From: Flavobacteriales bacterium
GTDB taxonomy: Bacteria > Bacteroidota > Bacteroidia > Flavobacteriales_F > PHOS-HE28
Assembly (NCBI GenBank): GCA_016703005.1
Contig: JADJCX010000033.1
Coordinates: forward strand, 297,767 to 361,766
Length of the DNA: 64,000 nucleotides
Reading direction: 5' to 3'
The notes beneath the pieces were generated by a model. The model had not been told where the DNA came from. It did no database searches and was given only the letters and a program-made list of their open reading frames with translations. The stretch's first letter is position 1. Each line of letters starts with the position of its first letter. Positions 45,654 to 58,927 of the stretch are shown one piece after another. The translations under genes were made by a program, and so were the position numbers.

Positions 45654-46850
45654 GATAACTGGAGGTCTCAGGAGCATGTGGGTTAGAGTTGGATGGGCAC
45701 TGGCGGCCGGTAACCGAGTGCTTTGTGAGGTCGAAGATGGTTGTAATCGTACATCCATTCGGTGGTGCGCAAGCGAACCTCATCGAGGGTACGGAAGACG
45801 TATGCGCTGAGCACATCACGGCGCAGGGTTCCGTTGAGCCGTTCGATGTAAGCGTTTTGCGTGGGCTTGCCCGGTTGGATGAAGGTGAGGGTGATCTTTT
45901 GGAGCTTGCACCAGTGATCGAGTTTGGCGCTGATGAACTCCGGTCCATTGTCCACGCGGATCATGGTCGGTAGCGGACGATGTTCCTTGATCTGTTCAAG
46001 GGCACGTATCACGCGCTGAGCAGGCAGTGAGGTGTCCACCTCGATGGCCAGTACCTCGCGGTTGTAGTCGTCCAGGATATTGAGCAGTCGGTACGTGCGA
46101 CCGTCCCAGAGGCTGTCGTGCATGAAGTCGATGCTCCACACCTGATCAGGGGCTTGTGGTTGGAACAACGCCTGCTTCACGCGGGCAGGCAGGCGCTTCT
46201 TGGCCCTGCGCCGGATGTTCAGGCCCATGGCCGTGTACACCCGGTACACGCGCTTGAAGTTCCAGCGTTGACCCGTCAAACGCATGCGGTGATGGCTCTG
46301 CCACACGCCGATGGCCGGATGCCGCTGGGTGAGTTCGCCCAAGGCTTGGATGATCGCCGTGTCATCGGGTGGGTGCTTGAGGTACTGCGCGGTACTGCGA
46401 GCAAGGCCCACACAACGGCAAGCCTGCCGCTGTGTAAGTCCGTGTTCATTGCTCATCGCCTGCACGATTTCGCGCTTCTCGTCAGGCGCCCCACTTCTTT
46501 TCCACCACCTGCTTCAATGCATCGTGCATCATGCTCAGCTCGGCATACATGCGTTTGAGGCGTCCGTTCTCCTCCTGCAGTTCCTTCATCTGCTTGAGTT
46601 GGCTGGCGTCCAGACCACCGTACTTGGCCTTCCACTGGTAGAACGTGGCGTTGCTGATGCCGTGCTCGCGACAGATGTCGGCGACCTTGGCTCCAGCGTC
46701 ATGCTGCTTGAGCATCGAGACGATCTGATGCTCGGTGAACTTGCTTTTCCTCATGGCTACTACTTGTGTTGAAAGTAGCCCCTGACCGGTCAACGGGATT
46801 TTTCCCCAGGCCTGATGGGCCGGGAAAAATCCCGTTGACCTCCACTATCA
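45654..46850 (-). mobile_element. IS3-family insertion sequence (about 1.2 kb). orfA runs 46482-46754 and orfB (DDE integrase core) 45683-46465.
   Basis: orfA has an HTH region (MRKSKFTEHQIVSMLKQHDAGAKVADICREHGISNATFYQWKAKYGG). orfB has the rve/DDE core (...DNGPEFIS...[12 protein letters not shown]...). Imperfect terminal IRs about GATA(A)nTGGAGGTC at both ends. orfB overlaps orfA by about 33 nt but in the +1 rather than the usual -1 frame. Confidence 0.8.
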
Positions 46851-46872
46851 CATGGCCGAAGATTGGGGAAGC

Positions 46873-47973
46873 TTACACCGATCCTTTGCATATCTGCCCG
46901 CATAGAAAGTCGCTTGGCCTGGAGTCTTTGATTTCGATGCCGAAGGACTGCATCCTTCGATAAATGGTTTCGAAACCCACCATCGAAGGTTTGCCGTATT
47001 CAGCATTCACAGGTATATAGAATGGCTTGGTGAGAACATCGGCGGCTTCGCTGAAACGCTCATGCTTTATAAGGACCGCCAAGGAGAAAAGAAACAACTC
47101 ATGAATGAGAAATCTGTAGTTGTCAAACTCCCAGTCCTGCCAAGAATTCAAATTGGGTGACTTGTCCATATACGGAATGATGTCTTCAAAGAACCGATGA
47201 AGGCGATTAATGATTGCCTCACTCGGGTGATACTGGGCGATAGCCACGAAGAGATGAAGCATCTCGTTTCGTTGCGGAAGAAAGTCTCCAATGCTCGCTA
47301 CTACTGCCTCACCGAATTCTCCAGCCGGGTTCACTAATCTGATTCGCTCAAGGTTCTTGGCAAACGTTGTGCAGTACTCATCAAAGGCACCTTCAGCGTA
47401 GCTTTTATGGTCCCTTAGACCTTCCAGGCACCTTTTGAACAATAGAGAGGTGCCCAATGATGCATGCTCGCCCTCGTTCAAGAACGTGGGCATGGTACCT
47501 ATTTCGGGCTTCACATAAAGGGGTTTGTCAAAAATCCATCGGAGCAGCCGTTCAAGGTTGTCCGAGTACCGGTCCAATTCACTGAGGTCGATGTAGATTC
47601 TGGCCTTGTAGTATGTAGGAAGAAAGGGTTTGTCATTTGCGTCTTTATGGCTCACAACAGCAACGAACTTGTTTTGGTCTTGTCTGTCGTAAACTTCCTT
47701 AGAGATGATTTGCGTTTCAGTTCCAACACCACCCGATCGACCGTCCGCCTTACTCGCGTATTTCTCATCGCAGATAATAACCACCTTCTTAATGTCTGGA
47801 TTGGTGACCATTTGCTCCATGAAGGCCACCGCATCATGCCCTTCCCTCAAATCCCATTTGTCCAGAATCACATCCACTCCAGCCGACCGCAATTGAGTTG
47901 CAAGATCAATGACCCATTGTTCGTGATCCGGGCTGGACCAGCTGTATGAGATGAAGAGTTTTGGGGCGGACAT
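46873..47973 (-). CDS. TIR-domain protein with an uncharacterised ~230-aa C-terminal domain
   Basis: N-terminal TIR-like block KLFISYSWSSPDHEQWVIDLATQLRSAGVDVILDKWDLREGHDAVAFMEQMVTNPDIKKVVIICDEKYASKA. Low-GC (~45%) coding sequence. Start trimmed to MSAPKLF. Confidence 0.6.
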   Translation of the reverse strand: MSAPKLFISYSWSSPDHEQWVIDLATQLRSAGVDVILDKWDLREGHDAVAFMEQMVTNPDIKKVVIICDEKYASKADGRSGGVGTETQIISKEVYDRQDQNKFVAVVSHKDANDKPFLPTYYKARIYIDLSELDRYSDNLERLLRWIFDKPLYVKPEIGTMPTFLNEGEHASLGTSLLFKRCLEGLRDHKSYAEGAFDEYCTTFAKNLERIRLVNPAGEFGEAVVASIGDFLPQRNEMLHLFVAIAQYHPSEAIINRLHRFFEDIIPYMDKSPNLNSWQDWEFDNYRFLIHELFLFSLAVLIKHERFSEAADVLTKPFYIPVNAEYGKPSMVGFETIYRRMQSFGIEIKDSRPSDFLCGQICKGSV

Positions 47974-48142
47974 CCGATTATGAGTATGAGGCAAAGATGG
48001 CTCCCACTTGTCGCGTGATGGGCTGACGCTCGCCTTCGACTCGCTTAATTGCAAGTCAGCATTGCAGCGATTGGCTACATTCGCATCATGCGAGCTATGA
48101 CGCGGCGAATATGGATATGTGGCTAAGCCACTATCTCATTAT

Positions 48143-49058: not shown

Positions 49059-49195
49059 TGGGCTTGGGCGTCGATCAAATCTAGCTTGGCGCTGCGTCTA
49101 TAAGTAAGGAACGCGCGCGCGGCTTACGATGGAGAGGTACAAGGGTTTCACCTTTCATTCTCCTTGATCTGCTGGCCACGAGTAGGGATATTTCG

Positions 49196-49448
49196 GAAGC
49201 TGATAGAGACATGTTCAGCGCAGACATGGGCATGTTGAAGTTGAACAGAGACCTGTTGGCCACGAACAGGGACATGATCGCCGCTGAAAGAGACATGTCG
49301 GCGGCCGATAGAGACATGTTAGCCGCTGAAAGAGGCATGATAGCGGCTGACAGAGACATGTTAGCCGCTGAAAGAGGCATGTTAGCGGCCGACAGAGACA
49401 TGTTAGCCGCTGACAAGCATGTTGATCGCTGACATGTACATGTCAGCC
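49196..49448. repeat. Tandem array of about 11-12 21-bp repeats (alternating GCCGCTGAAAGAGGCATGTTA and GCGGCCGACAGAGACATGTTA) ending in a perfect 20-bp palindrome GCTGACATGTACATGTCAGC
   Basis: Direct reading of 49196-49448. The 21-bp period equals two helical turns. Every unit contains an ACATGT-like core. Both strands stay open in several frames, as expected for a period that is a multiple of 3. Confidence 0.85.
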
Positions 49449-49584
49449 GTAAAAAGAGGCGTACGGAAGTCAAGCTTTTACTCTGACGGAGGTGTTTCCT
49501 CGCATCCGATCGCAGGTCAGCAGCCTTCGGTGTGTGTCATTCAGTCAAGGGCCTGTGGCCCGCCGCATGCATTAGCTTGAACCC

Positions 49585-50244
49585 GTGTTCCCTGCCACCC
49601 TAAATATCACTGTCTTCTGCGGCGCATTGCTGGTCGCTTGCGTCGTTGCTGCCCAGCCGCCGAAAGAGCCGGGGTCGTTCAGGCCACCCGACCTGGTGGA
49701 GATCGTGAAGCTGGATAAGACCATCAAGCTCGACATCCGCTACGCCACGAAGAACAATTTCCTGGGGCGACCGGTGTACAAACATGCACGGGCCTTTTTG
49801 CAGCGCCCGGCCGCCGAGGCACTGGTGCGCGTGCACCAAGCGCTGAAGGCGCAGGGCTTCGGGCTGCTGGTCTTCGATGGCTACCGGCCGTGGAGCGTTA
49901 CCAAGGTTTTTTGGGACAGCACACCCAACGACAAGAAGAGCTACGTGGCCGACCCCGCAGTAGGCTCGCGGCACAACCGCGGATGCGCGGTGGACCTCAC
50001 CTTGTTCGACCTCAAGACAGGTCGCGCTGTAACGATGCCCAGCGAATACGACGAGATGACGGAACGGTCGCATGCGGACCATTCCGGTGCAACGCCGGAG
50101 GCCACGCGCCTGCGCGATCTGCTCATCGCGGCCATGCAAGCGCAAGGCTTCACGGTCTTCGCCACCGAGTGGTGGCACTTCGACTACAAGGACTGGAAGG
50201 AGTATGCGATCCTGGATGTTCCGTTCAAGGAGATCGGGAAGTAG
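49585..50244 (+). CDS. ddpX: D-alanyl-D-alanine dipeptidase (M15 family, VanX/DdpX-like), secreted
   Basis: Signal peptide and M15D motifs (...SRHNRGCAVDLTLFD...EWWHFDY). Confidence 0.8.
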   Translation: MFPATLNITVFCGALLVACVVAAQPPKEPGSFRPPDLVEIVKLDKTIKLDIRYATKNNFLGRPVYKHARAFLQRPAAEALVRVHQALKAQGFGLLVFDGYRPWSVTKVFWDSTPNDKKSYVADPAVGSRHNRGCAVDLTLFDLKTGRAVTMPSEYDEMTERSHADHSGATPEATRLRDLLIAAMQAQGFTVFATEWWHFDYKDWKEYAILDVPFKEIGK

Positions 50245-50336: not shown

Positions 50337-51623
50337 ATGCGTGCACATACCCGTTCCTTCCTGCTATCCTGCGCTCTCGCATTCGCCCCGCTGGCACAGG
50401 CGCAGGACTTCTTCTGGGACTTCGAAGGAGCGAACGGCCTCGATGGATGGCACATGTATGATGGCAGTTCGATGCAGACGGGACCAGGTGCGGCCAGTGC
50501 GACCAGCGTGCGTTTGCAGAGCGGACCGCCCCTTAACAGCGGATCGTTCGATTCGGCCATGTTCTTCTACCATGTTGTGCCGTACGACCCTAACGTCTTT
50601 TACAACATTACAGTTGGGTGCATGACACTCGACCCCGATGTGTACCCGATGGTATACCTCGGTTGGCTCGATACGCTGACCCAGCCCGCATTCCTGAACG
50701 CCGCGAACACCAGCATGACCGTTTCGACGGGCCCCTCCAGCTGGGCCATCGCCGAATTGCTGGATGAGTATCCCATCACCGGAACGGGCGCGTACTGCAT
50801 CATCATTTCGGCTTCATCGTTGATCCCGGGCGAAGCCCTGTTCGACAACATTTCCGTTGAGATGATACCGCAGGGCTCGGCCATGCTCCGCGCGCCAAGG
50901 CTGTTCCTGGGCGGCAACTTCGATAGCGGCATCAACCGGATGGGCCACCATCTCAACGACCTGGGATTAGTGCCGGCCACGGAGCCATACACGGCCATGG
51001 GTTACCAGCAGATCGGCGGTGGTGGGGAGATGTGCACACCCTTTGTGATGGAACCGAGCTTCAACTTCAACGCCGTGGATTGGGTGCGCCTCGAATTGCG
51101 TTCGGCCTTGGACCCGACCGTGGTGGTGGCCACGCGGCAGCTCATGCTCACTTCACTCGGTCTTACGTGCGGCCCCAATGGGCAACTGAACCTGCACTTC
51201 GATCTGCCGGCCGGCAACTATTACGTGGCCGTGCGCCACCGGAACCATCTGGGTGCGATGACCGCCACGCCGGTGGCGCTGCCAAGTCCATTTCCATGGT
51301 GGGCGGTGGATTTCCGCTCGCCTTCGCTTGCCACATGGGGCAGCAATGCGCGCAAGGCGGTGGGGGCGAACATGGTGCTATGGGAAGGCGATGTCACAGG
51401 CGACCACTTGCTCAAGTATGTGGGTATGAACAACGACCGCGACCCCATTCTCGTGGCCATTGGTGCGTTGCCCATCGCTACCCTCACCGGTCAGTACCGC
51501 AAAGAGGATGTGACCATCGATGTCGTCGTGAAGTATGTCGGGGTGAACAACGACCGTGACCCCATCCTTGTGAATATCGGCGGTAATACGCCCAATGCCG
51601 TGCGCGTGGAGCAGGTGCCATAG
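50337..51623 (+). CDS. Secreted protein, paralog A of a novel family, with C-terminal dockerin-like Ca-binding repeats
   Basis: Signal peptide. Shares long blocks with 53834-55138 (FEGANGL.GW, EPYTAMGY.Q.GGGGE, VDWVR.ELRS..DPT..VATRQ, NYY.AVRHRNHLG.MTA.PV). Repeats of the form GD.TGD..LKYVG.NNDRDPILV.IG. Confidence 0.6.
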   Translation: MRAHTRSFLLSCALAFAPLAQAQDFFWDFEGANGLDGWHMYDGSSMQTGPGAASATSVRLQSGPPLNSGSFDSAMFFYHVVPYDPNVFYNITVGCMTLDPDVYPMVYLGWLDTLTQPAFLNAANTSMTVSTGPSSWAIAELLDEYPITGTGAYCIIISASSLIPGEALFDNISVEMIPQGSAMLRAPRLFLGGNFDSGINRMGHHLNDLGLVPATEPYTAMGYQQIGGGGEMCTPFVMEPSFNFNAVDWVRLELRSALDPTVVVATRQLMLTSLGLTCGPNGQLNLHFDLPAGNYYVAVRHRNHLGAMTATPVALPSPFPWWAVDFRSPSLATWGSNARKAVGANMVLWEGDVTGDHLLKYVGMNNDRDPILVAIGALPIATLTGQYRKEDVTIDVVVKYVGVNNDRDPILVNIGGNTPNAVRVEQVP

Positions 51624-51717
51624 GGGGTTACGAACTGGCGCGGGCCTTTCTAAGCGTCCATCGCAGAGTCGCTTGTGCGCGAGTCCTACGCATGAGGCCG
51701 CAGGGGCTCGCAGGCCG

Positions 51718-51820
51718 AGGGCTTCACCGTCTTCGCCACCGAGTGGTGGCACTTCGACCACAAGGACGGGAAGGAGTATGCGATCTTCGATGTGGAGTTC
51801 GGCAGGATCAAGGGTCAGTA
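51718..51820 (+). pseudogene. Fragment (~100 bp) of the ddpX 3' end
   Basis: ...GFTVFATEWWHFDHKDGKEYAIFDVEFGRIKGQ* is about 80% identical in DNA to 50140-50244. Confidence 0.7.
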
Positions 51821-51830
51821 GTTCCCCCGC

Positions 51831-53387
51831 CTATTCCTTCACTATGCGCAGGCAGGTCAAACCTTCATTGGAAGTCACCTGCAGGACGTAGGGTCCTGAA
51901 GGGAGAATACTCAGGTCAACAAGGGAGCCGCCAACGCGAAAGTGCCCAGTTTGCACTGTCGCACCCAAGGTGTTGATGACCACATAGACTGCGTTACTGC
52001 CTATGTCGCCGGTGATCCTGAAGACGCCGTTGCTCGGGTTCGGTGTGGCAGTGAGTCCCGGTGCTGGCAGTGATGGGTCCACCGCTGTGCTGAAATCCTC
52101 CTCACCGAGTTCAACAAGCCATACATCGCGCACGCCTATGAAGTCCTGGACGTCGCCATCATTCGATTGTGCATGCCCGGCCATCATGAAGTGGCCGTTG
52201 GGAAGTGCGACGATCGCCGAGCCGCCGTCAAAGTCGGTGCCGCCCATTGTTTTCTGCCACAGGAGATCCCCGAACGGGTCCAGACGTACAACCCAAGCAT
52301 CGGACCAGCCTTGGTTGCTGGTCACGTCGCCATCGGCAGAGCGTGTGTTACCGGTGAAAATGAACCCACCGTCATAGAGCTGGTCCATGTCGATCGGGGT
52401 GTCGAACAGAGAGCCACCGATACAATGCTGCCACTGCAGGTTGCCCAGTGAGTCCAGCTTCACGATCCAAGCGTCCTCATCGCCGTGGAGGCCGCTCACG
52501 TCGCCATCATTGGACGAGGTTCTCGCGGCGATCACATAGCCACCATCCGAGGTGAGCGCCAGATCGAACGGGTTTTCGGACCACGTGCCGCCAAAGGACT
52601 GCTCCCAGAGGATCGCACCGACGCTGTCCACCTTCACCAACCACACATCGTTGGCGCCGAGGTTCTGGGAAACGTCGCCATCGGAGGACAAAGAACTGGC
52701 CGCGAAGACATAGCCGCCGTCCATGGTCCTGGTGATGGACCAACCCACTTCGGCCAAGCTGCCGCCGTAGCACCGCTGCCATTCCAACCCGCCAGTGCTG
52801 TCGAGCTTCACCACCCATGCGTCGTCCGCACCGTGATTGCCGCTCACGTCGCCGTCGTTCGAGGTGGTGCGCGCTATCAGTATGCAGCCACCGTCCGGCG
52901 TGCCTTCAATGCACGCCACGGTCTCGTTGCTCGATCCACCGAGGTCGATGTTCCACTGTACGTTCCCACCGCTATCGAGCTTTACCACCCCGATGTCCGA
53001 GTAAAGCACCGGATACGGCGTGATGTACCCGGTAAGGAAGTAACCACCGTCAGCGGTTGGTGCGAGACCATGGGCATCATCCCAACTAACACCGCCCAGC
53101 GTTTGCTGCCATAGCAGCGTTCCGGTGCTATCGATCTTGAATACCCACATGTCGTGATCGCCGTTCTGCCCCGAAATGTCGCCATCGACCGAGGTTGTGA
53201 ACCCGGAGACAACGAAGCCGTTGTCAGCCGTGCGCAGGAGGTTGCGCCCCATCTCGTCATGCGATCCTCCATAGGTCTCCTGCCATACAATGGGCGGTGC
53301 TATCTGGCCGATGATGGTGCCGCGCAACACAAGAACCGCAACAGGGATGATCGTCCAACGAAAGAAGCGGGCGACTGAGCTTTGCAT
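51831..53387 (-). CDS. Secreted beta-propeller-repeat protein with a T9SS type A C-terminal sorting domain
   Basis: About 8 repeats of about 50 aa (DGGY...G.T.S.DGDVSGNHG.DDAWVVKLDS.G.L.WQ...GG) and a Por-secretion tail (...GPYVLQVTSNEGLTCLRIVKE). Confidence 0.7.
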   Translation of the reverse strand: MQSSVARFFRWTIIPVAVLVLRGTIIGQIAPPIVWQETYGGSHDEMGRNLLRTADNGFVVSGFTTSVDGDISGQNGDHDMWVFKIDSTGTLLWQQTLGGVSWDDAHGLAPTADGGYFLTGYITPYPVLYSDIGVVKLDSGGNVQWNIDLGGSSNETVACIEGTPDGGCILIARTTSNDGDVSGNHGADDAWVVKLDSTGGLEWQRCYGGSLAEVGWSITRTMDGGYVFAASSLSSDGDVSQNLGANDVWLVKVDSVGAILWEQSFGGTWSENPFDLALTSDGGYVIAARTSSNDGDVSGLHGDEDAWIVKLDSLGNLQWQHCIGGSLFDTPIDMDQLYDGGFIFTGNTRSADGDVTSNQGWSDAWVVRLDPFGDLLWQKTMGGTDFDGGSAIVALPNGHFMMAGHAQSNDGDVQDFIGVRDVWLVELGEEDFSTAVDPSLPAPGLTATPNPSNGVFRITGDIGSNAVYVVINTLGATVQTGHFRVGGSLVDLSILPSGPYVLQVTSNEGLTCLRIVKE

Positions 53388-53439
53388 GATGCAATGTAAA
53401 CCTCCTTCCATAGGCCCAAAGCGCTCGAGGCGGAACAGT

Positions 53440-53722
53440 TGTCCGCGCGGCACAACCGCGGCTGCGCGGTGGATCTCACACTCTTCGACCTCAAGACCGG
53501 TCAGGCCGTGACGATGCCAGCGAACACGATGAGATGAACGAACGGTCCTACCCGACCTATTCAGGTGCTGCTCCGGAAGCCACGCGCATGCGCGATCTGC
53601 TGATCGCGGCGATGCAGGCGGAGGGCTTCACGGTCTTCGCCACCGAGTGGTGGCACTTCGACTATAAGGACTGGAAGGAGTATGCGATCTTGGATCTACC
53701 GTTCAAGGAGATCGGGAAGTAG
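53440..53722 (+). pseudogene. Fragment (~280 bp) of the ddpX 3' half, frameshifted
   Basis: Aligns to ddpX from ...HNRGCAVDLTLFDLKTG to the stop. A 1-nt deletion lies near 53518. The last 62 codons remain open as ORF 53534-53722. Confidence 0.75.
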
Positions 53723-53833: not shown

Positions 53834-55138
53834 ATGCTATCCCAGTTGGTTCGTTGTGCCTCGGTAGGCATTTTTGTCATCGTCGGGAACACGGCTGCCT
53901 CGCAGACCTACAGCTTCAATTTCGAGGGTGCGAACGGCCTTTCGGGTTGGGTGCAGAACGACGGCCAACCCATTGGCACGGGGGCAGGTGCAAGCGGTAG
54001 CACGGCGTTGTCCATTTCCGTGGACCAGGTCAACTGGGACCGTCGTGTTTACCATCCCATTCCGTTCGACCCGACCAAGGTCTATCGGTACTCGGCCTGG
54101 ACGAAAGTGGGGCAACTCTCGACTACCACATCGGTAAGGCTCGCGTGGGTCGACTTCAGCACCGGACAGCGCATCTACACCGATACCTACTATCTGAACG
54201 GAAATTATGGCGCATGGCGGCCAGGGGGTATCCCGCCTCATCTCATCCCGACGGCCGACTTCTCGTCGAACCCGAACGCACAGTTCTGCATCGTGCTCGA
54301 AGCATTCGATGGTCTTACCGGCATCGCATGGTTCGATGATGTGGTGGTGACGATGAGCGACGTTTCCTCCACTGCGTTCATCAGTGCGCTTGTGATGTTG
54401 GGCGGTACGTACACCAACGGCTACATGCCTGCCAACCTGCGCTTGCAGAACCTGCTGCCTGTGCTGGAACCGTACACCGCGTTGGGCCATGTGCAAGTGG
54501 GTGGTGGCGGTGGCGAAACGGCGCCGGAAGCATGGTGGAACTTCAACAACCTGGACGGGCCGGTGGATTGGGTGCGGGTTGAATTGCGCTCTCCGATCGA
54601 CCCGACCATCATCGTGGCCACGCGGCAAGGGCTGGTGAGCAGCATCGGCTCGATCACCGAGGTGGACGGCGGCAGTGCCCTTGGTTTCAGTGTTGCACCG
54701 GGCAATTATTACCTGGCGGTGCGGCACCGCAACCACCTCGGGTGCATGACCGCCTCGCCGGTTTTCGTGCAAGGTGCCATCACGGTTCCGTGGTCGGCTT
54801 ATGGTTTCGTGGACTTCACTGCGGCCGCTACCCCTGTTTGGGGGACCGATGCGCGGAAGCACGGTGACAACACTTACAACTACAAGGTGCTATGGCCCGG
54901 TGACACCAATGGCGATGGTGTGGTGAAGTACACCGGTGCCAACAATGACCGCGATCCCATTCTGCAAGCGATCGGCGGCGTCCTGCCGACCAATACGTTG
55001 CCCAGCGTTTACAACATACATGACGTGGGCATGGACGGCACGGTGAAATACACCGGGTCCTTCAACGACCGCGATCCGATCCTGCAGACCATCGGAGGTG
55101 TTATTCCCACGTTGACGCGCGCGGCGCAGTTGCCTTGA
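53834..55138 (+). CDS. Secreted protein, paralog C of the novel family, with dockerin-like repeats
   Basis: Signal peptide. Conserved blocks shared with 50337-51623. Repeats DTNGDGVVKYTGANNDRDPILQAIGG and GMDGTVKYTGSFNDRDPILQTIGG. Confidence 0.6.
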   Translation: MLSQLVRCASVGIFVIVGNTAASQTYSFNFEGANGLSGWVQNDGQPIGTGAGASGSTALSISVDQVNWDRRVYHPIPFDPTKVYRYSAWTKVGQLSTTTSVRLAWVDFSTGQRIYTDTYYLNGNYGAWRPGGIPPHLIPTADFSSNPNAQFCIVLEAFDGLTGIAWFDDVVVTMSDVSSTAFISALVMLGGTYTNGYMPANLRLQNLLPVLEPYTALGHVQVGGGGGETAPEAWWNFNNLDGPVDWVRVELRSPIDPTIIVATRQGLVSSIGSITEVDGGSALGFSVAPGNYYLAVRHRNHLGCMTASPVFVQGAITVPWSAYGFVDFTAAATPVWGTDARKHGDNTYNYKVLWPGDTNGDGVVKYTGANNDRDPILQAIGGVLPTNTLPSVYNIHDVGMDGTVKYTGSFNDRDPILQTIGGVIPTLTRAAQLP

Positions 55139-55743: not shown

Positions 55744-57211
55744 ATGAACGCTCGTTACTTACTGCTCTTTCCCATTTGCGCAATGGCCCTCCAAGCCACC
55801 GCCCAAGTGGATCCCTTGGACCCCGGTTTCGGCACCAATGGCATCGTTAGCATCCCCGGCACCTATGCGCAGGTCGGCGAGTTCGTGTTGCCGTACGACG
55901 ACGGCCGTCTGTTGGTGGTAAGCTCGCTGCTGCCATGGATGGCGCCGACACAACGAGTGCAGTGTACACGCTTGTTGCAGGATGGAACGTTGGATGCGGG
56001 TTTCGGCACTGGCGGCACCGTGGAGTTGTACCTGATGGGCGAGAAGTTCACGGCCACTGATGGCGCGTTGCTGCCCAATGGAGCCATCGTATTGTGCGGG
56101 TATTTGGGCGATATCGCGGGCGGCGTTCTGATGAAGCTGTTGCCGGACGGAAGTCCCGACCCGCTGTTCGACTCGGATGGCATTGCGGTGTTTCCCGGTC
56201 TGGATGTGCTCCACTCGGTATTGGTGTTGGCCGACGGCTCCATGATCGCATCTGGAGAAACCATTGAGCCGGTGATCTTGAAGGTGAACGCGTTCGGCGA
56301 ACCTGACGCCGCTTTCGGCAACAGCGGTTTTCTCTACCCCTCCGGTACGGGCGCCATTACCCATCTGGAGCGCACGCCCGGTGGCGATGTGGTGGGCGCA
56401 GGTTACATCAACATCATGTTCGACCTCTTCTTTGTGAAGTTCACCACAACAGGCGACCTCGTTTCGACCTTCGGCACCAATGGCGAAGCAATCGTTCCGC
56501 TGCTGCCATCCAACGACGCTCCGCGCGCGCTGCAGATCCTGGACGATGGCCGCATGATGGTGGCGGTGAACGGTGATGGGGCTGATTCGTACATGGTGCG
56601 GCTCAACGCCGACGGAACCCTGGACCCGAGCTTTGGCGTCGGTGGTGTTGTAGCAGGTGCCTCGTTACCCAACGGCGATTTCCTCTTCACCAGTTCGGTT
56701 ACCACGCCGCAAGGCACCACCATAGCGGGCTACAGGGCGTTGACGCCGGGCATTGCCTACGTGGTGCGCTTGGATGCCAGCGGAAGTCCGGTGCTGGGCT
56801 TCGGCAACAACGGCACGTACACGCTCGACCCTGATACCTCCTACTTGCATGGCGCCTGTGTAACAGCGTTGGGCCAAGTGGTGGTAACAGGGGGTGAAGC
56901 TGTTCGGCCCGAACATGGGCATTCTCGTTGCGCGGTTGTCGGCCAGCCCCGAAGGCATCGAACAACTTGCTCCCGGTGTTGAACCGCTTTCCATCATCCG
57001 CATTGCAGCTGATGCTGTGCGCGTAACCGCGGGCGATCGCGTTCTGGAGTGTTGGGTGTTCGACGCGGCCGGTAGAACGGTGCAGCACCTCAACGGCAAT
57101 GGAACGGCTGTGGTCGATATCGGCACCGGCGGCATCAGCACAGGGGCATACGCGGTAGTGGTGCGCACACAAAGCGCAACCGTGGCAGGGCGCTTCGTGC
57201 AGAGCGAGTAG
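55744..57211 (+). CDS. Delta-60-repeat protein with a T9SS C-terminal sorting domain, interrupted by a frameshift near 56890-56894
   Basis: Signal peptide, then repeats of the form .DGSLD..FG..G (LDAGFGTGG, PDPLFDSDG, PDAAFGNSG, LVSTFGTNG, LDPSFGVGG, PVLGFGNNG). The Por-secretion tail is in ORF 56894-57211. G4 instead of G5 at 56890-56894 joins the two ORFs (...VVTGVKLFGPNMGILVARL...). Confidence 0.6.
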
Positions 57212-57289: not shown

Positions 57290-58927
57290 TCAGAACTTCA
57301 TGATGCGCCCACTGGCAGTGTGCGCAGCGGCATTTACACGGATCGTGTAAAGTCCCGGCGCAAAGGAGCTCAGATCGACGGCATGATGAAGGGCAGTTTG
57401 GCCATACAGCACCAACCTACCTGAACTGTCGAACGCCTGGTAGGTGAGAGGGCCAGCGATCGCTGCGAAGCCGCTTCCAGTGATCGTCAGTATTCCGTTG
57501 TCCTGGTCCCAAAGCAGTGTGAAAACCGCCTCTGGTTGTGGCGTGCCATCCACCACTGAGATGATCTCGCCGATCCGCGCCATGTAATGATCGGCGCTGG
57601 AGATGGACGTTATCGGCAACGCACCGAACACTGCTTGCTGGTCGTAGCCTCCATTGATGTAGATACCGTCCTGGGTATCGACCGTCACCTTTGCTGCGGG
57701 GTCGTAGTTAAGACCTCCACCAGCCAAAGACCAGAGGCCTGCACCGGTGGTGTCGTAGGCCGCAACGAATACATCCACACCACCTGATGTGCTGAGCAAC
57801 GTACCGCCGAAAGTTCCTGAGCCGCTGAAGTTGCCGGTGACAATTGGTTCGTTCTTAGTGTTCAATGCAATTCCGGTTCCTTGATCCACATCGGTGCCGC
57901 CGGTGGTGATCACCCAGTCGAGGTTCCCCAATGCGTCATAGCGCGCCAGCACAACGTCCTCTAATACTCCGTTCGTGATCAGTGTAGCACCATCGAAGAC
58001 CACGGTATCGCCGTTCACCCAGCCCACCACGTAGCTGTTGCCGAGGGCATCCACTGCTACATCGTTGCCTTGATCGCTGGTGCCGCCGCCGCCATTGCGC
58101 GCCCAGAGGCATGTGCCGCTGGGATCGTACTTCGCGAGGAACATATCCGCGCCTCCGTTCGTCGGTAAGCCGATCGGCCCGAAATACGTCAACCCACTGC
58201 TGCAGAAACCCGTAACGAATGCATTTCCCAATGGGTCGGTGGCGACCGCTAGCGCTTCTTCACCTCCGATGCCACCGGCCTTCGTTGCCCACAGGTAGTT
58301 GCCGTTCGCATCGAGTTTCGCCAGAAAAGCATCCCGGTTGCCCGAGCTGGTCAAACTGAACGCTCCGAATGAGGCGGTGTTGCGGAAATAGCCGCAGACG
58401 AACACATTGCCCGCTGCATCCACGCTCACCGCGCGGCCTTCGTCATCGAGCAGGCCACCTCCGTGCGCAACCCATTGTTGCACGCCGTTGGTGTTGTACT
58501 TCACGATGAACATGTCGGCCATGCCATTGGTTGGAATGGAAGTGCCGCCGAAGTTGGCCACCGAGGTGTAGGAGCCGGTGATGTACGCATTACCATTCAC
58601 GTCAGTGGCAATGCCCTGGCCCACTTCATCGCCTTGTGGGCCACCGTCGATGAAGGACAGCAGGCAGTTTCCGAGGCCGTCCAGCTTGACCACGGAGACG
58701 TCCGCTCCGCCGATGCCGTTCAATGTTGAGCAATCGCTGGTGGACGGCCCGATCACGTAGCCTGTGGACCAGACGTTGCCGCTCCCATCCACTTGGATAT
58801 CCTTGGCTTGATCATAGTCACTACCGCCCAATGATCGCACCCACTGGAAGCTTTGAGCGGTGTTGATGAGTGGACATATCGTGATCAACACGAATGAAAG
58901 TAGGCGTTTTGAGCGACAGAGCTTCAT
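57290..58927 (-). CDS. SBBP (beta-propeller) repeat protein with a T9SS type A C-terminal sorting domain
   Basis: Signal peptide. About 8 SBBP-like repeats (GG.GSDYD.A..I..D..GN.Y.TG.T.S..F). C-terminal tail ...APGLYTIRVNAAAHTASGRIMKF. Confidence 0.7.
   Translation of the reverse strand: MKLCRSKRLLSFVLITICPLINTAQSFQWVRSLGGSDYDQAKDIQVDGSGNVWSTGYVIGPSTSDCSTLNGIGGADVSVVKLDGLGNCLLSFIDGGPQGDEVGQGIATDVNGNAYITGSYTSVANFGGTSIPTNGMADMFIVKYNTNGVQQWVAHGGGLLDDEGRAVSVDAAGNVFVCGYFRNTASFGAFSLTSSGNRDAFLAKLDANGNYLWATKAGGIGGEEALAVATDPLGNAFVTGFCSSGLTYFGPIGLPTNGGADMFLAKYDPSGTCLWARNGGGGTSDQGNDVAVDALGNSYVVGWVNGDTVVFDGATLITNGVLEDVVLARYDALGNLDWVITTGGTDVDQGTGIALNTKNEPIVTGNFSGSGTFGGTLLSTSGGVDVFVAAYDTTGAGLWSLAGGGLNYDPAAKVTVDTQDGIYINGGYDQQAVFGALPITSISSADHYMARIGEIISVVDGTPQPEAVFTLLWDQDNGILTITGSGFAAIAGPLTYQAFDSSGRLVLYGQTALHHAVDLSSFAPGLYTIRVNAAAHTASGRIMKF

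Follow-up and report, generated by a model that had tools for sequence, protein, structure and literature searches.

A C-terminal module with dockerin-derived repeats in two paralogous, predicted secreted proteins of a Flavobacteriales bacterium

A dockerin-type docking module is a known kind of element. The type I dockerins (PF00404) of cellulosomal enzymes in Clostridia consist of a duplicated Ca-binding loop plus helix, with repeats of ~22 aa and 12-residue loops that carry D or N at positions 1, 3 and 5 and D at position 12. Dockerins are usually the last domain of a secreted enzyme. In the type II X-module–dockerin (XDoc) structures of cellulosomal scaffoldins (PDB 2B59, 4WI0, 4FL4) the dockerin is directly preceded by an Ig-like beta-sandwich, the X module, with which it makes up a single unit. 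Dockerin- and cohesin-like modules outside cellulosomes, in many phyla and in proteins that are not carbohydrate-active enzymes (CAZymes), were reportedly described by Peer et al. 2009 (FEMS Microbiol Lett 291:1). A different class of C-terminal element in Bacteroidota is the C-terminal domain (CTD) of cargo of the secretion system of type IX (T9SS), of which types A, B and C are distinguished. Here we analyse a stretch of 64,000 nucleotides of contig JADJCX010000033.1 from a Flavobacteriales bacterium, called the window throughout, with a focus on gene A (nt 50337..51623, plus strand), its paralog gene B (nt 53834..55138, plus strand) and the C-terminal module that both encode.

A C-terminal module shared by A and B

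Gene A is an intact open reading frame (ORF) of 428 aa, comprising a predicted signal peptide, a beta-jelly-roll resembling carbohydrate-binding modules (CBMs) and a C-terminal sandwich-plus-dockerin-like module. Gene B encodes 434 aa with the same three-part architecture. The two proteins display 38% identity in an end-to-end alignment (BLASTP E 2e-80) and have the blocks FEGANGL.GW, EPYTA[ML]G, VDWVR.ELRS and NYY.AVRHRNHLG.MTA in common. The deposited records identical to A and B, IPG74_17195 (MBK6777496.1) and IPG74_17215, are both named 'hypothetical protein' and come from a Flavobacteriales metagenome-assembled genome (MAG). Neither protein has a sequence-family match in Pfam, NCBIfam or PDB (phmmer and profile searches). 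CP064979.1, the complete genome of a relative, has an A-type gene with 53% identity to A and a B-type gene with 71% identity to B; A and B are old paralogs. A third paralog, P0025 (IPG74_09465), is present in the MAG of the window. It has the same overall architecture with a divergent N-terminal domain and belongs to a 439-aa subfamily. The A/B-type architecture is therefore that of a small multigene family within this MAG.

The signal-peptide-like N-termini of A and B are calls of a hydrophobicity heuristic alone; in A, inspection of the sequence together with this heuristic places the predicted Sec signal peptide (MRAHTRSFLLSCALAFAPLAQA, then QD) at nt 50337..50402. The jelly-roll of A follows at nt 50403..50888, as judged by homology to the modelled domain of B. 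The remaining ~244 aa, nt 50889..51620 with boundaries taken from alignments, end in VEQVP and contain an arm (LFLGG...EPYTAMG...GGGGE), a transthyretin-like beta-sandwich (VDWVRLELRS plus the HRNH hairpin) and two dockerin-derived repeats. The HRNH beta-hairpin, GNYYVAVRHRNHLGAMTA, recognised by family conservation, is encoded at nt 51213..51266, repeat 1, LWEGDVTGDHLLKYVGMNNDRDPILVAIGA (aa 348–377), at nt 51378..51467, and repeat 2, YRKEDVTIDVVVKYVGVNNDRDPILVNIGG (aa 387–416), at nt 51495..51584, all on the plus strand. At the DNA level nt 51385–51455 and 51502–51572 share 73% identity, and the repeats of B are matched by each of them as well. In B, likewise on the plus strand, the module covers about aa 183–434 (nt 54380–55135), with the HRNH block at nt 54701–54754 and the repeats at nt 54890–54979 and 55010–55099. 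These two copies of the module are the only ones in the window.

A search with B returned 880 proteins. Only about 40 of them match over the full length, and the rest match the C-terminal ~57% alone. Because most relatives match only this part, fused to other domains, it is a module and not a family. With clusters formed at 50% identity, a profile of the module matched 12,897 cluster representatives at E ≤ 1e-3, 9,719 at E ≤ 1e-10 and 3,628 at E ≤ 1e-30, and the module family itself has no Pfam, NCBIfam or PDB match. With one genome counted per species, the module occurs at no fewer than 587 loci. The 79 loci among the matches listed all come from MAGs of uncultured Flavobacteriales/Bacteroidota, where one MAG can hold up to five or more of them, often as tandem copies, and many of the host MAGs were named by their depositors after activated-sludge plants. 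The sequence-only reading of this locus had taken A for a member of a novel secreted family that could not be assigned to a known domain. The conserved blocks, the two C-terminal repeats and the M15 dipeptidase neighbour that it pointed out are all present, and A does look secreted by its N-terminus. The failure of sequence assignment stands as well, but the supposed family is a fusion of a CBM-like jelly-roll with an abundant module.

The passengers of the module are dozens of unrelated domains, mostly not CAZymes. Families fused to it include PF07995, PF20009, PF17164, PF00135/PF20434, PF00082, PF03150, PF07731 and PKD, among others. By type they are pyrroloquinoline quinone (PQQ) sugar dehydrogenases, GEVED, delta-60/DUF5122 propellers, PKD, esterases, subtilases, cytochrome-c peroxidase and multicopper oxidase, to which M36 fungalysin, S8 protease, MopE repeats and HYR can be added. 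There are also module-alone proteins of ~280–320 aa, consisting of a signal peptide and the module. A signal-peptide-like N-terminus was found in 167 of 218 module proteins by the heuristic. At the other end, the stop codon comes directly after the final P in 99 of 99 genomic copies, and no residue extends beyond the module in 244 of 253 proteins, with one or two extra residues in four more. The module ends in EQLP, QQLP, EQVP, AQLP and similar motifs. Two metagenomic proteins, P0119 and P0133, are arranged otherwise, with a signal peptide, the module and then a Fib_succ_major-type domain, which leaves the QQVP motif internal.

The module of ~245 aa consists of a ~60-aa arm (LxGxY...EPY...GGGGE), the sandwich, a linker, two ~40-aa repeats and a terminal R-x-[EQ]-Q-[LV]-P. 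An AlphaFold2 model of full-length B, built on a 49-sequence alignment, has a mean predicted local distance difference test score (pLDDT) of 91.9 and a predicted TM score (pTM) of 0.88. In this model the sandwich has seven strands (VDWVRVELRS ... GNYYxAVRHRNHLG, residues about 243–330), and the final ~85 residues form loop-strand-helix repeats. Each repeat has a short strand (VKY), the invariant Y-x-G-x-x-N-D-R-D and a helix, and DSSP assigns the helices directly after each NDRD to residues 374–379 and 413–419. The strands of the HRNH hairpin are residues 290–298 and 301–306. Among the 49 sequences, numbered as in B, H298, R299 and H301 do not vary, and conservation of N300 is at least 90%. 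D245, W246, E250 and E228 of the arm and sandwich are also invariant. Across 251 modules the HRNH motif is at least 90% conserved. It is retained in distant relatives of the FCB group, and HRNHL and VDWVxVELR are kept even in very distant ones. The hairpin, the most conserved element by sequence, may be a ligand or metal site.

The two models of this region differ in confidence. Residues 353–434 of B have a pLDDT of about 85–96 in the full-length model (49 sequences) versus about 30–40 in a model of the module only (29 sequences), so that either the depth of the alignment or contacts with the jelly-roll matter. The best Foldseek matches of the module-only model are XDoc structures and transthyretin-like domains, none below E 0.2. 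Weak matches of this kind liken the sandwich to transthyretin-like/CarboxypepD_reg-type accessory domains, and no known CBM was matched structurally by the C-terminal module in this search.

The N-terminal domain, ~155 aa in A and B, gives a clearer structural result. With residues ~24–176 of B, Foldseek against PDB finds the beta-jelly-rolls of CBM16, CBM22 and CBM4 at E 3.5e-6 to 1e-5 and target-normalised TM scores of 0.64–0.74, including 3oeb_A of CBM16 (E 3.5e-6, TM 0.71), 2zex_A (0.74) and 1h6x of CBM22 (0.69). A and B are 26% identical in this region (E 8e-12). The domain starts with FEG..G..GW and ends with FDdV.V, which we take to be typical of the CBM4/16/22-type fold. The fold is thus like that of CBM4, CBM16 and CBM22, but no CBM sequence family in Pfam was matched by A, B or the 49 aligned members. 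From the modelled structure, the jelly-roll is predicted to be a likely glycan-binding head.

Dockerin ancestry of the repeats and cohesin context

The origin of the repeats was revealed by distant relatives of the module. P0149 contains five tandem arm-and-sandwich units, each followed by canonical 'GDxxxDGxVDxxD ... DxxxxGxxDxxD' segments, and its residues 438–486 match Pfam Dockerin_1 with E 6e-8, above the gathering threshold. P0292 and P0324 also match Dockerin_1 at about 1e-7. HMMER aligns 'LWaGDvngDGevkY' and 'YsaeDvnlDGvv' of the module onto the two Ca-binding loops of the P0149 dockerin. Since the hidden Markov model (HMM) of the module aligns onto both Dockerin_1 loops, the NDRD repeats are dockerin loops, and the dockerin-like character suspected in the sequence-only reading is borne out. 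From the alignment, an insert of ~6 residues (K-Y-T-G-x-x) appears to lie between loop positions 8 and 9, and N-D-R-D would represent positions 9–12.

Column frequencies in 251 modules show how far the loops are preserved. Repeat 2 has D in 100% at position 1, N in 88% at position 3, D in 82% and N in 16% at position 5, and G in 96% at position 6. Repeat 1 has D in 65% and N in 33% at position 1, a variable position 3 (N 31%), D in 69% and N in 28% at position 5, and G in 59% at position 6. N-D-R-D (positions 9–12) is conserved in 100% of repeats 2 and 99–100% of repeats 1, and Y-x-G in 100% of both. The predicted Ca-ligand position 12, as mapped by the HMM alignment, is D in 100% of repeat 2 and 99% of repeat 1. 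Of the Ca-binding loops proposed earlier, the predicted ligand positions are conserved in repeat 2 (D 100%, N 88%, D/N 98%, D 100%) and only partly so in repeat 1.

Compared with type I dockerins, the module is alike in the duplicated loop plus helix and, more in repeat 2 than in repeat 1, in the predicted Ca ligands at positions 1, 3, 5 and 12. Its repeats, however, are ~40 aa instead of ~22 aa with loops ~6 residues longer, a specific arm and the HRNH sandwich always precede them, and Q-[LV]-P closes the protein. The hosts differ from the Clostridia as well, being uncultured Flavobacteriales MAGs, and the passengers are mostly non-CAZyme. With XDoc the module has in common the Ig-like beta-sandwich immediately upstream of the dockerin as one unit, but the X modules have neither the HRNH and VDWV motifs nor the N-terminal arm, and display no sequence similarity to the module.

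A search with the canonical unit of P0172 returned 238 proteins, nearly all of them 'hypothetical' and of 200–380 aa, and several with Dockerin_1. Where their sources are named, they are Calditrichia, KSB1, Ignavibacteria (a hydrothermal-vent metagenome), Rhodothermales, Bacteroidales and unclassified Bacteroidetes. We read the module as derived, within one lineage, from a unit of 'beta-sandwich + type I dockerin' that is analogous to the cellulosomal XDoc and widespread in FCB-group bacteria.

Some of the relatives are fused to cohesins. P0328, P0336, P0368 and P0260 start with a signal peptide and a Pfam Cohesin domain, continue with the sandwich and a dockerin, and end in ...QVPD or ...QVPN. 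The Cohesin E values range from 1e-8 to 2e-4 across the four, and from 8.5e-7 to 1.2e-8 for P0328, P0336 and P0368. P0328 lies in a cohesin-rich gene cluster on a Bacteroidota-like contig (L089:1909-10263). The product of gene 1 of this cluster, 597 aa long, combines two cohesins (Pfam 5.1e-15) with PKD_6 and a type A CTD of the T9SS (Por_Secre_tail, 2.2e-9). Gene 2 encodes a 1066-aa BNR/Peptidase_C1/lectin enzyme with the module at its end (...ASLVPY), gene 3 is P0328 itself with cohesin and module, gene 4 encodes a double-cohesin protein and gene 5 another cohesin-plus-module protein. The cluster looks like a compact, T9SS-tethered, non-cellulosomal cohesin–dockerin assembly in which the module serves as the dockerin on the enzyme.

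The parallel with cohesin–sandwich–dockerin proteins of ~381 aa raised the idea that the N-terminal domain of A and B is itself a cohesin. It was rejected, with an hhalign probability of 0.7% and no cohesin in the top 50 Foldseek matches.

Docking unit, secretion signal or ligand anchor

Genes for T9SS cargo with type A CTDs adjoin A and B (nt 51831–53453 and 57290–58927, both on the minus strand), and since the neighbouring genes carry them, the window organism uses type A CTDs. In A and B themselves, no match to TIGR04183/PF18962, TIGR04131/PF13585 or NF033708 was found at E ≤ 1 in Pfam and NCBIfam. No T9SS CTD was found in 29 modules at E ≤ 10 in Pfam, nor in P0121 and P0045 at E ≤ 0.1 in NCBIfam. 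The relation between the two kinds of tail can be followed in the PQQ dehydrogenases, in the 120 closest homologues of the P0039 passenger (54–100% identity; those named are from Flavobacteriales MAGs). Of these proteins 80 end in the module (median 626 aa) and 23 in Pfam Por_Secre_tail (median 539 aa), while no protein carries the two together; among the other 17, 15 show tails that look CTD-like by eye. Related passengers can thus end in either the module or the type A CTD, and the PQQ-dehydrogenase family records a single swap. Repeated independent swaps between them were considered and dropped, as a neighbour-joining tree of the family needs one change only.

The module resembles the T9SS CTDs of types A, B and C in its extreme C-terminal position, its phylum and the kinds of its passengers. 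It differs in having about three times the length of a type A CTD and in being occasionally N-terminal, as in P0119 and P0133, and its proteins end in loop-helix repeats, whereas T9SS CTD proteins end in an Ig-like beta-sandwich of ~70–100 aa. For type B CTDs, up to ~235 aa can be needed for efficient secretion (PMC12618676), so the size of the module alone does not exclude a T9SS signal.

We favour, with somewhat better than even confidence, the reading that the module is an X-module-plus-dockerin docking unit standing in for a T9SS tail, and that A and B are non-catalytic, glycan-binding surface proteins. A and B would be exported by Sec and bind a glycan with the jelly-roll head. The module would dock its passenger, in a Ca-dependent manner, to a cohesin-like receptor on the cell surface in this clade, and would be a general attachment or assembly handle for diverse secreted proteins. 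In a clade of uncultured Flavobacteriales, it would have come to occupy the C-terminal place where the type A CTD of the T9SS is otherwise found.

Several points speak against this docking reading. Pfam Dockerin_1 does not match A or B at E ≤ 1, and it matches weakly only one of 29 and two of 49 family members, with a best E of 0.0062. Repeat 1 is degenerate, in that position 3 varies and about 30% of modules have N at positions 1 and 5, and repeat 2 of A is degenerate too (DVTIDV, with T at position 3 and V at position 6). In the module-only model the repeats have the low pLDDT of about 30–40 given above, and its top Foldseek match, XDoc 4wi0_B, has E 0.2, probability 0.57 and TM 0.39 with the dockerin part at low confidence. 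A cohesin was not found with a small cohesin HMM in the window and 86 loci of this clade (~0.57 Mb), which is a weak test. The one change on the neighbour-joining tree explains the whole module/CTD distribution in the PQQ-dehydrogenase family, and glycan binding by the jelly-roll is predicted from the fold alone. Moreover, a docking domain does not explain how a Bacteroidota protein that lacks a CTD crosses the outer membrane.

The last point leads to the main rival, which we rate as rather unlikely: the module may be a new T9SS C-terminal sorting signal beyond types A, B and C, whose dockerin ancestry is historical. The machinery would recognise the module and take its passenger through the outer membrane, whether or not cleavage and anchoring follow, and we know of no other outer-membrane route for such Bacteroidota proteins. 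The strict extreme C-terminus with its conserved Q-[LV]-P, the restriction of the retrieved genomic copies to uncultured Flavobacteriales/Bacteroidota MAGs, the type A CTD cargo next to A and B, the passengers of T9SS-cargo kinds (delta-60/DUF5122 propellers, PKD, HYR, GEVED, M36 and S8 proteases) and the mutual exclusion of module and Por_Secre_tail on related PQQ-dehydrogenase passengers would all be in keeping with such a signal, and the size of the module is no bar. Canonical dockerins are typically C-terminal too, and the position fits docking and secretion signal alike, as does the exclusivity. The signal fits less well with the N-terminal modules of P0119 and P0133 ahead of a Fib_succ_major domain, with P0149, in which the canonical unit is internal and tandem ahead of a sub-threshold CTD-like tail, and with the cohesin context. 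It would also have to do without HMM similarity to TIGR04183, TIGR04131, NF033708, PF18962 or PF13585, and with loop-helix repeats over its last ~85 residues in place of the terminal Ig-like sandwich of known CTDs.

It is also conceivable, but improbable in our view, that the module anchors passengers through a non-protein ligand, such as the cell's own surface polysaccharide, lipopolysaccharide or a substrate polymer. The HRNH / D-W / E site on the sandwich would bind this ligand and the degenerate repeats would form a Ca-stabilised structural cap. The most conserved residues are indeed in the arm and sandwich and not in the repeats alone, HRNHL and VDWVxVELR persist across very distant relatives, the ligand positions of repeat 1 are degenerate, the sandwich resembles transthyretin-like/CarboxypepD_reg-type domains in weak matches, and the module exists as a protein by itself. 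Yet N-D-R-D and Y-x-G are fully conserved in both repeats, a sign that these do more than cap the structure; cohesins are fused to relatives or encoded beside them, and this part matches no known CBM structurally. The sequence-only reading had suggested a quite different role, in which A and B, as a dedicated family directed at peptidoglycan or the cell wall, would work together with the neighbouring D-Ala-D-Ala dipeptidase, perhaps in lysis or competition. The dipeptidase gene, ddpX, or fragments of it do adjoin A- and B-type genes in three related settings (the window, CP064979.1 and loci L002–L004). These three loci, however, are syntenic and differ by local rearrangement, other family members have no ddpX nearby, and no catalytic or peptidoglycan-binding domain was detected with Pfam and NCBIfam. 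The C-terminal 57% of A and B is generic, being common to thousands of unrelated proteins and attached to dozens of unrelated kinds of passenger. A cell-wall function thus finds no support and is largely refuted; we regard it as very improbable.

In the genomic surroundings of the module, clustering of the neighbouring ORFs of 86 loci yielded tandem module genes, spurious antisense ORFs and one Reg_prop+CTD protein that accompanies two ortholog groups; a general shared partner gene, analogous to PorP/SprF for type B CTDs, was not among them. No description of the module or of its Flavobacteriales expansion was found in the literature searched. Four traits appear undescribed in the databases and literature searched: the HRNH sandwich that is always present, the insert in the loop, the fixed C-terminus and the very large expansion in Flavobacteriales in which the module replaces the T9SS CTD. 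Relative to the non-cellulosomal dockerin-like modules, too, the sandwich-plus-insert-dockerin module and its expansion appear to be new.

Among the polymer degraders of wastewater and natural waters, uncultured Flavobacteriales are abundant. In their MAGs the genes concerned carry the name 'hypothetical protein' or that of the passenger domain, and a module of ~245 aa at the end of at least 12,900 protein clusters provides an annotation handle for these secretomes. It also extends cohesin–dockerin biology past the Gram-positive cellulosome producers and scattered non-cellulosomal cases to a large, mainly non-CAZyme expansion in Bacteroidota. For the T9SS field it raises the question of how proteins whose CTD was swapped for the module get out of the cell. 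Being compact and self-contained, the module could also serve as an engineering tag if a partner is found. A bolder proposal, which we put forward tentatively and consider doubtful, is that the module marks a previously unrecognised protein-sorting or display system in a large clade of uncultured Flavobacteriales, either a fourth class of T9SS C-terminal signal or a dockerin-based, CTD-independent route by which thousands of different enzymes would be exported and attached to the cell surface. In both cases the general address tag of a Gram-negative secretome would go back to the recruitment of a docking element of the cellulosome type.

The ddpX neighbourhood and other features of the window

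The gene upstream of A (nt 49585..50244, plus strand) encodes a ddpX-like M15 D-Ala-D-Ala dipeptidase with a hydrophobic N-terminus. It matches PF01427 with E 4.6e-38 (131.5 bits, cutoff 27) and NCBIfam PRK10178 with E 5.7e-51, where its 172.9 bits fall just under the cutoff of 176. Two fragments of its 3' end, both on the plus strand, occur nearby. One, just downstream of A (nt 51710..51800), is 87% identical to nt 50136–50226. The other, just upstream of B (nt 53446..53722), corresponds to the last ~278 nt of ddpX with 86–87% identity and an indel. The fragments flank the minus-strand T9SS cargo gene at nt 51831–53453, and the three copies of the 3' end display 86–89% mutual DNA identity. 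Because they are far more alike than A and B (38% at the amino acid level), the fragments are not relics of the A/B duplication. They suggest recent recombination or gene conversion at the junction, and the fragment at nt 53446..53722 marks a rearrangement or duplication junction.

Related loci display variants of this order. In CP064979.1 (L005), ddpX comes first, then a gene on the minus strand, a fragment of ddpX, the A-type gene and, 2 kb further, the B-type gene; a 93-aa Peptidase_M15 fragment precedes P0013 there. In L002–L004 a B-type gene is followed by ddpX. All these loci have an E1 dehydrogenase and a fatty-acid desaturase as flanks and are syntenic apart from local rearrangement. 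The loci of the family members P0005 (L001) and P0009 (L006) contain no ddpX. As the ddpX-linked loci are syntenic and L001 and L006 lack the gene, A and B lie in a rearrangement-prone syntenic patch and the ddpX link is incidental. The functional coupling with the dipeptidase suggested in the sequence-only reading was rejected as local synteny among close relatives.

Further features were noted around the two genes. The delta-60/DUF5122 beta-propeller gene at nt 55744–56982 has an odd Arg/Cys-rich tail, and an ORF resembling a T9SS type A CTD (TIGR04183, E 0.0055) follows in a different frame at nt 56894–57211. The two are probably one frameshifted T9SS cargo gene, which reflects either a real pseudogene or a mistake in the assembly. 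Nt 45683–48054, between the gene for E1 dehydrogenase and the ddpX locus, have a GC content of 0.527 versus about 0.59 in adjacent windows. This segment holds an IS3-family transposase in two frames (NF033516, E 5.5e-68) and a TIR/SEFIR-domain protein (PF08357, 4.4e-18; PF13676, 7.3e-18), and looks like a small mobile or defence insertion. Just upstream of ddpX, nt 49199–49424 form an imperfect tandem repeat with a period of 21/42 nt in about 9 and 5 copies, respectively. It is located inside a 130-aa minus-strand ORF (nt 49081–49473) that encodes MSLSAAN-like heptads and has no family match.

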